Part shown: one piece after another, positions 2,999-8,578 of the stretch
How positions within the stretch are numbered: position 1 is the stretch's first letter
Layout of the letters: each line of letters begins with the position of its first letter
Source: Escherichia phage PECP20
Direction: 5' to 3' (one strand)
DNA length: 64,000 nt
Sequence record: OQ873415.1
Position numbers and translations under genes: made by a program
Notes under the pieces: generated by a model
The model's database searches: none
Told to the model about the DNA's origin: nothing
The model's input: the letters and a program-made list of their open reading frames with translations, nothing else

Positions 2999-4312
2999 TC
3001 AAATAAAATGGACGTCAAAACGACCACGAGTTGTGCCGACATACAATAGCTGTTTAGCTAATTCTGAATCGGCATAATGGATACACGGTGTATAAACAAA
3101 GGCCGTGTCAACAGACATACCCTGAGCCTTATGGAAGGTTGATACAGGTAGCGCCTTCACCTTAGTGAACATGCGTTTAGCATCCCAGAATTTACTCCAT
3201 GGAGCTTTACCACCTTTATTCCAGAATTTGTATGTTTCTGCGGTCTTAGCCAAAAACAAATTGAATTTATAAAGCTCTTCTTCGGAAGAAATAACCTTTA
3301 TATCCTCGCGGACGTATTCTTCATCATCCCCATATGTTTCTACTGTAAGATTCCAGTATCGTATCATATATTCGCCTGAAACACCACGTGCTTTAACGAA
3401 TGTAGACGTTTCTACAGCATCTCGAATACGAACGAATTGCCCGTTATTGAAAAGCATTTCGGTCATATTTTTGCCATCTAGCTTATACGTCTTGGTAAAC
3501 GGCTCTTGTAGAACAATGACTTCGTCTTTAATAAATGGCTTTTCTGTTTCAAGAAGTTTTCGGCGAATAATTGAATTTAACTTGTCCACCGACTTATTTG
3601 TGAATGCCATCATTCGATTTTCGAAAAGGTCTTCAGGAGTTTTAACGACATTAAAATAGTTCATCATATACGATTTAAGGTCTGTATATCCATGAACACC
3701 GTGCCCATCAACTACTTTATCATAAATCCATTTGCCATTACGAATATCAGTCGCAACATCAATAATTGGTGCATTGCTACGTTTAACTTCTGTAAGGTTG
3801 CATTGCACGAAGTCTTTGTGAGTGAAGAAAGGACTTAGATACGCAGTGGATTCGCCTGGGTCTACCGGACGAATCTGGCATCGGTCACCAATTCCAATTA
3901 CTGTGCACCATTTAGGGATACTAGCTAACATTATTTTAAACAGAGAACGGTCACACATTGATGCTTCATCAAATAACAGTACACGACACAAGGCTAAGTC
4001 GGGAACCTTTTTCTGTTCAAATAATACGTTTTCTTCGTATGTAGTTGGGTTGATTTTAAGAATGCTATGAATAGTCGATGCTTCTTGACCCGCAAGTTTG
4101 CTTAGAACCTTTTTAGCAGCATGTGTAGGGGCTGCTAAAATAATACCTGATTCTCCGGCAGAAATAAGGGCTTCAACGATGAATCTAGTAAGGGTTGTTT
4201 TACCTGTACCAGCAGGCCCGTTAATAGTTACGTGATGTTTCTTTTCTTTAATAGCTTTCATAACAACGTTGAAGGCGTTTTTCTGGCCTTCGGTCAAATC
4301 ATCAAATGTCAT
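2999..4312 (-). CDS. dda: Dda DNA helicase (SF1B)
   Basis: 437 aa; near-colinear with T4 Dda as recalled (MTFDDLTEGQKNAFN..., Walker A GPAGTGKTT). Confidence 0.95.
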   Translation of the reverse strand: MTFDDLTEGQKNAFNVVMKAIKEKKHHVTINGPAGTGKTTLTRFIVEALISAGESGIILAAPTHAAKKVLSKLAGQEASTIHSILKINPTTYEENVLFEQKKVPDLALCRVLLFDEASMCDRSLFKIMLASIPKWCTVIGIGDRCQIRPVDPGESTAYLSPFFTHKDFVQCNLTEVKRSNAPIIDVATDIRNGKWIYDKVVDGHGVHGYTDLKSYMMNYFNVVKTPEDLFENRMMAFTNKSVDKLNSIIRRKLLETEKPFIKDEVIVLQEPFTKTYKLDGKNMTEMLFNNGQFVRIRDAVETSTFVKARGVSGEYMIRYWNLTVETYGDDEEYVREDIKVISSEEELYKFNLFLAKTAETYKFWNKGGKAPWSKFWDAKRMFTKVKALPVSTFHKAQGMSVDTAFVYTPCIHYADSELAKQLLYVGTTRGRFDVHFI

Positions 4313-4620
4313 CGTAAAGTCCCTGCAATTGGAATACTAACAATACGGCCAGTATCTAGAATTCGTTGATACAATCTTTGCGTCTCCGCATCTAGTTTAA
4401 TGTGTTTCATTTCAAGCTTATTAAACCAGAACTTACGCGGAGTTTCGACCATTCTTAGAACTCCCATTTTTAAATCTGTTTTATACTGTGTTTTCAAAGT
4501 ATCGAAAACTTTATCTGCAATATCCTTTCTAAAAAATACTGCAGGACGATGTTCATCAAGTGGAACTGGGACAGTAAATCCTTCCATATCTCGATAAACT
4601 ATTGCATATACATAAACCAT
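4309..4620 (-). CDS. hypothetical protein (dda.1 position, 103 aa)
   Basis: ORF overlapping dda start by 4 nt. Confidence 0.6.
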   Translation of the reverse strand: MVYVYAIVYRDMEGFTVPVPLDEHRPAVFFRKDIADKVFDTLKTQYKTDLKMGVLRMVETPRKFWFNKLEMKHIKLDAETQRLYQRILDTGRIVSIPIAGTLR

Positions 4621-4622
4621 AA

Positions 4623-5369
4623 TTAACCTTTAATCAGTTGGAATAATGATGCGCTAAGTGGTAGGCCACGTTTCAATTTTAATTTACCAATGAAACCAAT
4701 CTTTTCAAAACGTTGCAGACCTTGGATAACTTTATCATATGTATCGAAAAGCGATTCAGCGTCAGTTAATTTAGTTTTAGTTTTCCAGTCAGAGCCTTTA
4801 AGAAGAACGTTGAGTTTAGTAAGTTCATGGCCTTCTGCTTGATGCGAGCCATTAATGCGTGCTTTCAAAGCAACAATTCTAAGTTTAGATTCGTTAGATA
4901 AAGGTTGATTTTTCATCATGTTCGTCATATGCTTAACACGATTTTCACGTTTTGCTCGGATTTTTAAAATAGTATCATAAACCTTTTTGATTTGGGCCCA
5001 TTTCTTCTCGTCGAGATTAAGTTTCTCTACTTTACGGGCAGAAGGATTAGCGATACGCCTTGCAATGGCATCACGTTTCTCGATAAGTTCTTCTAATGTT
5101 AAATCGGAACGAGCCGTGTTATATTTTTTCTTAACTGGGATAACATTACCTTTAATGTAGCCGATATCGTTATCAAAACGTTCTAAGGATAATTTCTCAC
5201 CTTCAACAGAGTTATTGAAAGATTCACCTGAGTAAGCGCAGACCTTTTGATCAAGAATGTTTTTAAGGTAATTAAAGTCTAAGTTAAAATCCTTAGAGCG
5301 TCTCTTCGCAGAAGCTCTGGTGTGGTCAAGACGACGATTGATTTTGTTAATTTTATTATTTGATAACAT
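4623..5369 (-). CDS. hypothetical basic protein in the srd position; N-terminal HNH-like motif
   Basis: 248 aa; between dda.1 and the mod genes as T4 srd is; contains CAYSG...ERFDNDIGYIKGNV resembling HNH endonuclease motifs. Confidence 0.5.
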   Translation of the reverse strand: MLSNNKINKINRRLDHTRASAKRRSKDFNLDFNYLKNILDQKVCAYSGESFNNSVEGEKLSLERFDNDIGYIKGNVIPVKKKYNTARSDLTLEELIEKRDAIARRIANPSARKVEKLNLDEKKWAQIKKVYDTILKIRAKRENRVKHMTNMMKNQPLSNESKLRIVALKARINGSHQAEGHELTKLNVLLKGSDWKTKTKLTDAESLFDTYDKVIQGLQRFEKIGFIGKLKLKRGLPLSASLFQLIKG

Positions 5370-5522
5370 AATATTTTCCTCTGTCTTACGGACGTTAAGG
5401 TCATTTAGCTGATAAGCTTATAATATCATGCCCTCAGGTAGTGTACACTCTTTTTTCGTAAAATGCTTTAATTTTTTATGTGTTATAATGGTTCTGAGTT
5501 CCATCCGGTTATTCCAATCCAG

Positions 5523-6131
5523 TCAGTAACCGACAATAGACAGATTCCAGATTGTATAATTTCCATCTTGAATAATAGAATCTACACGCAGTGTAGTCCC
5601 TATAGGGAGCATAAATTCACATTCGTCAGATATAAGTCTAGCATTAGACCGTCTTGTCGCTTCAGGGAAAGCTCCATTGAACTCACAAGATGGCGCAGCC
5701 AGAATCATGTTAAGCATATGTTCACGGAAGTTGAAAGCAAATGGTGCATCTTTGATGCAGAACATATTAAATGTTCCGTAAAAATTATACGAAGCAAAGT
5801 TACGTGCTACACCGAACACTGGACTAAAGCTCATTACTCTGTCAAATTTAATAATACTACCAATGCCTTTATCATCGAGTGTGGCCATAGTTTTCTTAGA
5901 GATTCCACGATACATTGTCTCAGGAACAGAAGACGTCCAATTTCTACGAACAATTGCACTTAAATCTTGTTGGATGCTATCAGGCTTGTTTTCCATACAC
6001 TGCCATAGTACACTTTGTTCAATGTCGCTGAATTGACTATCAATTTCGTACTGCAATTCATCTTGATATTCAGGGCATTGAGCACGACGAACCATTTCTT
6101 CAATTTCACACTCGTTATACGGCATAAACAT
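5523..6131 (-). CDS. modA: ADP-ribosyltransferase, ModA/ModB family
   Basis: 202 aa; R-S-E type motifs (YRG, SFS, ECEF); synteny; modA versus modB assignment is by position only. Confidence 0.6.
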   Translation of the reverse strand: MFMPYNECEIEEMVRRAQCPEYQDELQYEIDSQFSDIEQSVLWQCMENKPDSIQQDLSAIVRRNWTSSVPETMYRGISKKTMATLDDKGIGSIIKFDRVMSFSPVFGVARNFASYNFYGTFNMFCIKDAPFAFNFREHMLNMILAAPSCEFNGAFPEATRRSNARLISDECEFMLPIGTTLRVDSIIQDGNYTIWNLSIVGY

Positions 6132-6188
6132 TTAGGTTTCTCCTGTGGTTGATAAAGGTATAGTATCATCATCGGAAGAGTTTGTACA

Positions 6189-6770
6189 CTAAAAATTCAA
6201 CATTTTCAAATGAATGATTTTGTATAACCGAGATAAAGGGTCATATTCTAAGTCTTCAATTTCTACAATCTCAAATCTAGAGATACCTGAGACCATGTAT
6301 TCTTGTTCAGATTCAATCATATCTAGGACGTCAACACGTTTTTCTTCCATAACATGCTTAGGGTTCTTTCCGGCGAGTACAATGTTAACCATGTTTTGGT
6401 AGTAATCGAAAATGAACGGAGCATTCCTGAGACTAAGAATAGTGTACGTTTGATATTCCCAACTCCCAGAGAACTGTCTGGCCGTACCAAAGTCTGTTGT
6501 AAACGATGTTACTCGTCCAGGAGACCAATGGCATCCTACAGATAACAATGAAAGATGTTCTACTTCTTCTGGAGTTACACCACGGTAGAGTTCTACTGGT
6601 ACTGTAGAAGTCATATGCTTACGAACAAGACGGTCTAATTCATAGTGGAAATCTGGGTCTTCCTTATAATCAGTGCAAGCCCAGAGAATGTTTTGTTCTT
6701 GTTTAGTGAATTTATCATCAATTAGTGCTGCGAGATATTCGCGTTCTTGAAGTTCAGATTGACATGTCAT
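6189..6770 (-). CDS. modB: ADP-ribosyltransferase, ModA/ModB family
   Basis: 193 aa paralog of the previous ORF (YRG, TSFT, EQEY). Confidence 0.6.
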   Translation of the reverse strand: MTCQSELQEREYLAALIDDKFTKQEQNILWACTDYKEDPDFHYELDRLVRKHMTSTVPVELYRGVTPEEVEHLSLLSVGCHWSPGRVTSFTTDFGTARQFSGSWEYQTYTILSLRNAPFIFDYYQNMVNIVLAGKNPKHVMEEKRVDVLDMIESEQEYMVSGISRFEIVEIEDLEYDPLSRLYKIIHLKMLNF

Positions 6771-6986
6771 GATAGACCTCCATTTAAAGATAAGCCTATC
6801 ATAACACGAGAGGAGGGAATGTAAACTACTTTTTAAGCTTTCCTACTAAAGGTCCATCAGGGCCAGGTTGTTCTAACATGAATAACGATGCTTTAAAAAG
6901 CAATGTTAACCCTTTCACCATTCGATACCATGTCTCAAAGTCTTTTTCCTTGATTTCTAGTAAGAATTTCTCTTTAAATTTCTCTT

Positions 6987-7175
6987 TCATTTCCAAGGAC
7001 TCCATGGTGGAGGGTCGTCATAATAAGAGGCAAGGTCTTTCAGGGCTTCAACAGGTAAACTAAAGCCGTGTCGTTGTATAATACTATCTAGTTCATCAAC
7101 AAGTTCACTACGATGCACTTTAGGAGCCTTGACTTCAGGCTCATCAAACATACTCATAAGGTCCATCTTATTCAC
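6987..7175 (-). CDS. hypothetical protein (62 aa)
   Basis: Small acidic ORF overlapping next gene start by 8 nt. Confidence 0.4.
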   Translation of the reverse strand: MNKMDLMSMFDEPEVKAPKVHRSELVDELDSIIQRHGFSLPVEALKDLASYYDDPPPWSPWK

Positions 7176-7632
7176 CTAAATAAAAACTAGCAGGTTCAGA
7201 GAATGTTTCTAGTGCTACACCTTTTGTCTTAAAAAATTTCCAAATAGCTCGTTGCAAATGGATTAAATCTGCTAATGATGTAATAAAGTATTTTTTGGCA
7301 AAATACGTATGGTCTCGCTTTTCAAACAGGTCTAAACGCTTTTCAGGATTCACATAAACAGCATTTTCTGTAGATTCATAACCTAAGTCCTTTATGCCTT
7401 CTTCAAGACTAAACGGAGAATTTTTAGAATGAGTAATAGCTCCAACTCGCTCTACACGAATTTTGTAACCTTTAGGAATCTGCAATTTGCAGAATTCTTC
7501 TACGATATATTGCGGATTATTTAGACTTTTGTTAATGAGAATAGCTATTTCTAGTGGAGTCTTATCTTCTACTGGTATATGTTTAAATGACTTGGCTTCA
7601 AGCAAATACATTTTAAATAACATAGCATCCAT
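7168..7632 (-). CDS. hypothetical protein (154 aa)
   Basis: ORF in mrh region by synteny. Confidence 0.6.
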   Translation of the reverse strand: MDAMLFKMYLLEAKSFKHIPVEDKTPLEIAILINKSLNNPQYIVEEFCKLQIPKGYKIRVERVGAITHSKNSPFSLEEGIKDLGYESTENAVYVNPEKRLDLFEKRDHTYFAKKYFITSLADLIHLQRAIWKFFKTKGVALETFSEPASFYLGE

Positions 7633-8312: not shown

Positions 8313-8334
8313 AAGGAATCCCGAAGGATTCCTT
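8313..8334 (-). terminator. intrinsic terminator-like UUCG hairpin after soc
   Basis: Minus RNA AAGGAAUCC-UUCG-GGAUUCCUU followed by UUUUCGUUUC; 8 nt after soc stop. Confidence 0.5.
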
Positions 8335-8341
8335 AAATTAT

Positions 8342-8578
8342 TTAACCACTTACTGGTGTAGGGGTAAACATTGCAGCGTTCTTAGTACGCCAATCTGCTG
8401 CGTCAGTCACCACAGTAGTGTAAGCAGCTTTTTCAGACGGGAAAGTCTGATAATGAGAATCTGCAATCCGATGTTCGTTTGAATAAATCTCAAACGGAAC
8501 AGAAACTTCCATACCTTTAACTTCTTTGCCTTCACCAGCAGGATGCGTAAAGGTTTTGATGTTTACATAACCACCCAT
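8342..8578 (-). CDS. soc: small outer capsid protein Soc
   Basis: 78 aa; YVNIKTF...HYQTFPSEKAAY matches T4 Soc as recalled. Confidence 0.85.
   Translation of the reverse strand: MGGYVNIKTFTHPAGEGKEVKGMEVSVPFEIYSNEHRIADSHYQTFPSEKAAYTTVVTDAADWRTKNAAMFTPTPVSG

Follow-up and report, generated by a model that had tools for sequence, protein, structure and literature searches.

The modB-modA locus of Escherichia phage PECP20: a diverged pair of predicted arginine ADP-ribosyltransferases

The stretch of Escherichia phage PECP20 DNA analysed here (sequence record OQ873415.1; 64,000 nucleotides, hereafter the window) carries two adjacent minus-strand genes that an earlier note, made from the letters alone, had described as paralogous ADP-ribosyltransferases (ARTs) resembling ModA and ModB of phage T4, whose divergence could mean altered targets. 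This raises the questions of whether the two genes indeed encode such enzymes, which of them corresponds to ModA and which to ModB, and what their divergence implies for the host proteins that they would modify.

Two adjacent genes of the ModA/ModB family

Both open reading frames, termed ORF_A and ORF_B, are complete and begin with ATG (the end coordinate takes in the stop codon). Transcription of the minus strand would run from ORF_B across a short spacer to ORF_A and, after a gap of 153 nt, on to srd, dda.1 and dda. In this order, the features of the locus are as follows:

6798..6826, minus strand: early-type sigma-70 promoter-like site 5' of ORF_B (GTTTACA, 16 nt, TG-n-TATGAT)
6774..6782, minus strand: Shine-Dalgarno-like GGAGG of ORF_B, 7 nt 5' of the ATG, read from the sequence as aaatGGAGGtctatcATG
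6189..6770, minus strand: ORF_B, 193 aa, the promoter-proximal copy, a predicted ModB-type arginine mono-ADP-ribosyltransferase
6132..6188, minus strand: spacer between ORF_B and ORF_A, 57 nt, containing a Shine-Dalgarno-like AGGAG for ORF_A as well as TGTACA-17-TACTAT, a weak promoter-like sequence
5523..6131, minus strand: ORF_A, 202 aa, the srd-proximal copy, a predicted ModA-type arginine mono-ADP-ribosyltransferase
4623..5369, minus strand: srd, an anti-sigma factor homologue (phrog_1400, E 6e-100; 69% identity to T4 Srd) and the synteny anchor downstream
4309-4620, minus strand: dda.1 homologue
2999-4312, minus strand: dda homologue

The coordinates first given for the pair, 5523-6770, were exact, and judged by their sequences the two proteins are paralogs, with 32% identity over 147 aa (BLASTP, E 2e-26). 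Each matched phrog_832, 'RNA polymerase ADP-ribosylase' (E 3.7e-38 for ORF_A and 1.1e-36 for ORF_B). When all ORFs of 50 aa or more in the window (415) were scored with a family profile, ORF_A and ORF_B alone were recovered (E 1e-87 and 1e-84; next best 0.25). The same profile found no third paralog or Alt-like ART in the 64 kb, a result that says little on Alt, which is very divergent and is located elsewhere in T4-type genomes.

A profile search of 1.84 billion representatives delineated a small family of ~200-aa proteins, with 120 members at E<=1e-3. Homologues P0001-P0032 all carry the precomputed Pfam domain PF26816.1. Scans of ORF_A and ORF_B against local copies of Pfam-A and NCBIfam yielded nothing meaningful; the Pfam-A copy scanned, which was silent on the window's proteins even at E<=1, apparently lacks PF26816. 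ORF_A and ORF_B group with the T4-type ModA and ModB proteins by significant similarity to them along the full length, by their single-domain architecture of ~200 aa and by their place in the early region running from soc/mrh to srd-dda. As a separate observation, ModA/ModB-type ART domains also occur inside giant multidomain proteins of 1,000-4,300 aa (P0060, P0067, P0069, P0072 and other representatives), which are probably 'polyvalent proteins' of phages and conjugative elements as described in PMC5512222.

We aligned the pair with T4 ModA and ModB (sequences from NC_000866). The residues of the R-S-EXE motif in the four proteins are:

ORF_A: Y74-R75-G76; S101-F-S103; E170-C-E172
ORF_B: Y62-R63-G64; S89-F-T91; E155-Q-E157
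T4 ModA: R72; S96-A-S98; E163-Q-E165
T4 ModB: R73; S99-F-T101; E171-Q-E173

In both phage PECP20 proteins, the order of Arg (strand beta-1), S-x-S/T (beta-2) and E-x-E (ARTT loop) is present and aligned with the characterised enzymes, and the R, the G, the first S and both E residues were invariant in this four-way alignment and in family alignments of 15 and 23 sequences. No catalytic residue was lost on alignment to the T4 proteins, the arginine, the first serine and E-x-E all being kept. The signature originally read from the pair (YRG, S-x-S, E-x-E) needs one amendment: YRG and E-x-E hold for both proteins, but S-x-S is literally present in ORF_A only, ORF_B having S-x-T, as does T4 ModB. 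The substitution R73A abolishes the activity of T4 ModB (PMC10468400), and T4 ModA E165A is catalytically dead (PMC11404850); the residues aligned to these positions are R63 of ORF_B and E172 of ORF_A, respectively.

AlphaFold2 models of the two proteins (ORF_A: pLDDT 94.3, pTM 0.87; ORF_B: pLDDT 89.9, pTM 0.84) both have the predicted ART fold, a split beta-sandwich with N-terminal helices. In Foldseek searches of the PDB with either model, all top matches were R-S-E ADP-ribosyltransferases (E ~1e-5, probability 1.0, TM 0.45-0.56), including C3 exoenzymes, Certhrax, Vis, HopU1, iota Ia, CDTa, Tre1 and ExoS/T; the ORF_A model matched C3, Vis and HopU1, and the ORF_B model Certhrax, C3, iota and CDTa, at E ~1e-5. 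The C3-like and binary-toxin enzymes (C3bot, Certhrax, Vis, iota Ia, CDTa, HopU1, Tre1) resemble the phage proteins in fold and in the arrangement of catalytic motifs, yet share only 9-17% identity with them, and are secreted bacterial toxins or effectors as opposed to intracellular phage early proteins. Searching the PDB by sequence revealed no solved relative of ORF_A or ORF_B, only chance matches (E>0.02). Among the predicted viral structures of BFVD, the ORF_A model matched ModB of Serratia phage CBH8 and ModA of Shigella phage Sf22 at TM 0.85.

The source phage is a Mosigvirus, an RB69-like relative of T4 that infects E. coli. Its locus is 97.7% identical in nucleotide sequence to that of Escherichia phage CEV1, and 153 phage records, almost all of them from Mosigvirus phages of E. 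coli or Shigella, hold the locus at a nucleotide identity of at least 90% (90-99%). In the type member, RB69 (NC_004928), the equivalents are already annotated modA and modB (NP_861708, with 96.5% amino-acid identity to ORF_A, and NP_861709, with 94.3% to ORF_B), other records use the names 'RNA polymerase ADP-ribosylase' or 'ModA or ModB ribosyltransferase', and phage CAU_ECP01 has a protein with 100% identity to ORF_A. RB69, O157 typing phage 3, CEV1 and CAU_ECP01 share the locus, its order and its lengths with PECP20, and the few substitutions that separate the pair in these Mosigvirus phages from that of PECP20 fall mostly in the N-terminal helices. Since the genes are annotated as modA/modB in RB69 and in >100 near-identical phage genomes, the pair is already known and nothing is new in the genes as such. 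The original reading of the two proteins as ModA/ModB-like ADP-ribosyltransferases is borne out by position, catalytic residues, predicted fold and existing annotation, and we consider both their family membership and their enzymatic nature highly probable.

Divergence of the pair and its correspondence to T4 ModA and ModB

The gene order modB-modA-srd-dda.1-dda is common to T4 (Tequatrovirus), RB69 and PECP20 (Mosigvirus), JS10 (Dhakavirus) and VR25 (Gaprivervirus), and Citrobacter phage Moon (Moonvirus) has a single 'ModB-like' gene at the equivalent place. Because both the order shared by four genera and the single Moon gene fit it, we favour one tandem duplication, probably in the ancestor of these four genera (Tequatro-, Mosig-, Dhaka- and Gaprivervirus), and take the copy next to srd to be of the ModA type. 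One-to-one orthology to T4 is likely, though not proven by sequence, with srd-proximal ORF_A as the ModA type and upstream ORF_B as the ModB type.

ORF_A is like T4 ModA (NP_049635; the ADP-ribosyltransferase of RNAP alpha Arg265) in its srd-adjacent position, its aligned R-S-EXE motif (R72/E163/E165 of T4 ModA align to R75/E170/E172) and its size (202 vs 200 aa in T4), and the predicted structure of a Tequatrovirus ModA matches the ORF_A model at TM 0.85. The two proteins nevertheless share only 34% identity over 172 aa, and ~19% in the N-terminal helical region. ORF_B is like T4 ModB (NP_049636; acting on S1, EF-Tu and trigger factor, and RNAylating S1/L2) in its upstream position and in its S-F-T and E-Q-E motifs, but it is 14 aa shorter, with a shorter N-terminus and without the insertion before the ARTT helix. 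The T4 genes overlap by 4 nt, whereas those of PECP20 are separated by the spacer.

The divergence that the earlier note had remarked on proved real and far exceeds that of the neighbouring genes: identity to T4 is 79% for Dda, 78% for Dda.1 and 69% for Srd, as against 31-36% for the two ARTs, and the srd/modA boundary therefore marks a sharp fall in conservation. We also estimated dN/dS between PECP20 and each of RB69 and O157 typing phage 3, two pairwise comparisons that involve few substitutions, with the following values:

ORF_A: 0.35-0.41, the highest of the genes compared
ORF_B: 0.14
dda, dda.1, srd and mrh: 0.03-0.07

Within Mosigvirus, most amino-acid substitutions fall in the N-terminal helices; the strands with R, S-x-S/T and E-x-E are unchanged. 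As far as pairwise estimates from few substitutions go, this is the pattern of functional enzymes that are under purifying selection and whose periphery evolves fast. It would fit, but does not demonstrate, a shift or drift in the recognition of substrates. In the same comparisons, dS was 0.28-0.29 for ORF_B and 0.07-0.16 for ORF_A, srd, dda.1, dda and mrh; the value of ORF_B, roughly two- to fourfold that of the other genes, suggests a recombinational exchange of this segment with a Mosigvirus lineage that is more distantly related.

In BLASTP searches, ORF_A scored higher against T4 ModB (31% over 210 aa, 107 bits, E 5e-34) than against T4 ModA (34% over 172 aa, 72 bits, E 3e-20), and so did ORF_B (ModB: 36%, 90 bits, E 3e-27; ModA: 26%, 41 bits, E 2e-9). 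The N-terminal helical region of ORF_A is likewise 32% identical to T4 ModB vs 19% to T4 ModA. In a neighbour-joining tree of 63 family members (200 bootstraps), the ORF_A and ORF_B clades received 95% and 100% support, deep nodes stayed below 30%, and no supported relation was found among the clades of ORF_A, ORF_B, T4 ModA and T4 ModB. Together with the low identity of the locus relative to its neighbours and the raised within-genus dN/dS, whose changes cluster in the N-terminal helices, the leaning of ORF_A towards T4 ModB and the poorly supported deep nodes would fit two active ARTs with a division of labour unlike that of T4, for example with ORF_A as a second ModB-like enzyme of broad or RNAylating activity, or with one copy targeting a host defence or toxin protein. 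We consider such an arrangement unlikely, given that PECP20 shares its host (E. coli) and its flanking takeover genes with T4, that gene order is conserved in four genera, and that the closest relatives of T4 ModA are found in the ORF_A clade. In clade-profile scoring, T4 ModA reached 95 bits on the ORF_A clade vs 32-64 bits elsewhere (32 on the ORF_B clade, 37 on the T4 ModB clade), and its best matches outside its own genus were members of the ORF_A clade. The C-terminal third of ORF_A, moreover, is 34% identical to T4 ModA vs 29% to T4 ModB, and the pattern FP-x3-R-x2-N-x2-L-[IV]-SDE-x-E-x-M-[LI]-P-x-G is common to ORF_A and T4 ModA. Because host, synteny, the link to the ORF_A clade and the C-terminal pattern agree, the asymmetry between ORF_A and the T4 proteins is most simply explained by fast evolution of T4 ModA itself; on this simplest reading, ORF_A would be the less-diverged member of the ModA lineage and T4 ModA a fast-evolving outlier.

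The poor resolution of the deep nodes would also accommodate independent duplications in Mosigvirus/Dhakavirus and in Tequatrovirus, in which case the labels 'ModA' and 'ModB' would not be transferable between genera. The clade-profile scores of ORF_A, ORF_B and T4 ModB point the same way, each of these being closest to a single-copy 'ancestral' type and scoring higher on such clades than on the others of the three. However, the tandem arrangement and its orientation by srd are identical in four genera, T4 ModA is linked specifically to the ORF_A clade, and one duplication is more parsimonious, so that we regard separate origins as very unlikely and retain the single ancestral duplication.

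That linkage alone maintains one copy as a decaying or catalytically dead paralog is extremely improbable: in the laboratory, T4 can dispense with modA and modB (PMC2988021, for modA), the dN/dS of ORF_A, ~0.4, is the highest among the genes compared, and one homologue, P0002, has an internal deletion, but both ORFs are full length with catalytic residues intact in every family alignment, dN/dS is <1 for both and the catalytic core is invariant across Mosigvirus sequences, and both have confident models and a Shine-Dalgarno sequence of their own. P0002, from Escherichia phage vB_EcoM-ZQ3, is an otherwise 90%-identical ModA homologue whose 17-residue deletion (PFAFNFREHMLNMILAA) lies opposite ORF_A residues 130-146, with loss of a core strand and a helix; the allele of this one phage may be inactivated.

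Proposed function and targets

The best explanation of the locus, which we hold to be highly probable, is that ORF_B and ORF_A are modB and modA, encoding small single-domain NAD+:arginine mono-ADP-ribosyltransferases of the R-S-EXE class that would act early in infection. For the further claim that their targets are those of the T4 enzymes, which rests on analogy, we see slightly better than an even chance. T4 ModA ADP-ribosylates Arg265 of both RNAP alpha subunits, and T4 ModB modifies S1, EF-Tu and trigger factor (PMC2988021, PMC10468400); T4 ModB also attaches NAD-capped RNAs to S1 and L2, a reaction termed RNAylation (PMC10468400).

By analogy with the T4 enzymes, NAD+ would be bound by way of the beta-1 Arg together with the S-x-S/T strand, and the E-x-E of the ARTT loop would serve the transfer of ADP-ribose onto arginine side chains of host proteins. 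ORF_A, as the ModA type, would most likely modify Arg265 of both RNA polymerase alpha subunits, which, if the T4 case holds, would uncouple the polymerase from UP elements and from CRP-dependent host promoters. ORF_B, as the ModB type, would most likely act on the translation proteins S1, EF-Tu and trigger factor, and may also RNAylate S1 and L2 with NAD-capped RNAs, as T4 ModB does. The locus evolves far more rapidly than the genes around it, chiefly in the N-terminal helical region, with catalysis under purifying selection.

A speculative extension, which we hold to be decidedly unlikely, is that ORF_A, with its ModB-like N-terminal helical domain, has a target range or a capacity for NAD-RNA (RNAylation) that is absent from T4 ModA, the N-terminal helices of both enzymes perhaps being a specificity determinant that tracks variation in host or defence. 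The Mosigvirus enzymes, which share their host with T4 and about one-third of its enzymes' sequence, constitute a natural comparison set, and could help locate what lets ModB, and not ModA, accept NAD-capped RNA, a matter stated to be an open question (PMC10468400).

Expression signals and surroundings of the locus

The promoter-like site upstream of ORF_B showed 10/12 consensus matches and an extended -10 TG in a consensus scan, and a GTTTAC -35 is the signature of T4-type early promoters (PMC1524935). The spacer's TGTACA-17-TACTAT, with 8/12 matches by eye, fell under the scan threshold and is putative only. Because promoter-like sites are no commoner in the region than in shuffled sequence (15 vs 13.3, no excess), the early promoter and Shine-Dalgarno signals around ORF_B and ORF_A are suggestive only.

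RB69 modA is annotated from the second Met (200 aa), as opposed to the 202-aa ORF_A given here. The AGGAG of ORF_A lies 8 nt ahead of the first ATG, and in phage ESCO47 the second Met is replaced by Leu, leaving the first ATG as the only Met kept; for these reasons, the 202-aa form appears the likelier product. A 161-aa ORF on the plus strand (5478-5963), antisense to ORF_A, was dismissed as most likely a by-product of the coding strand, nothing supporting a gene there.

Upstream of the pair, a Mrh-like gene at 7168-7632 (minus strand; PF24070, E 7e-38) has only 32% identity to T4 Mrh. The corresponding region of RB69 is annotated with two short fragments (186 and 210 nt), while PECP20 and O157 typing phage 3 have one intact ORF of 465 nt, and the whole modB-to-soc interval is a variable region. 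A terminator-like site occupies 8313-8334, where a perfect hairpin of 9 bp (AAGGAATCC-cgaa-GGATTCCTT) precedes a run of T on the minus strand. It is situated just downstream of a 78-aa ORF (8342-8578), which by its position only we take to be soc, and the cluster of early genes lies downstream of it. Scanned over its full length (1-64000), the window yielded no tRNA gene and no Rfam family at threshold. GC skew is negative throughout the window, in keeping with the minus-strand location of almost all genes.
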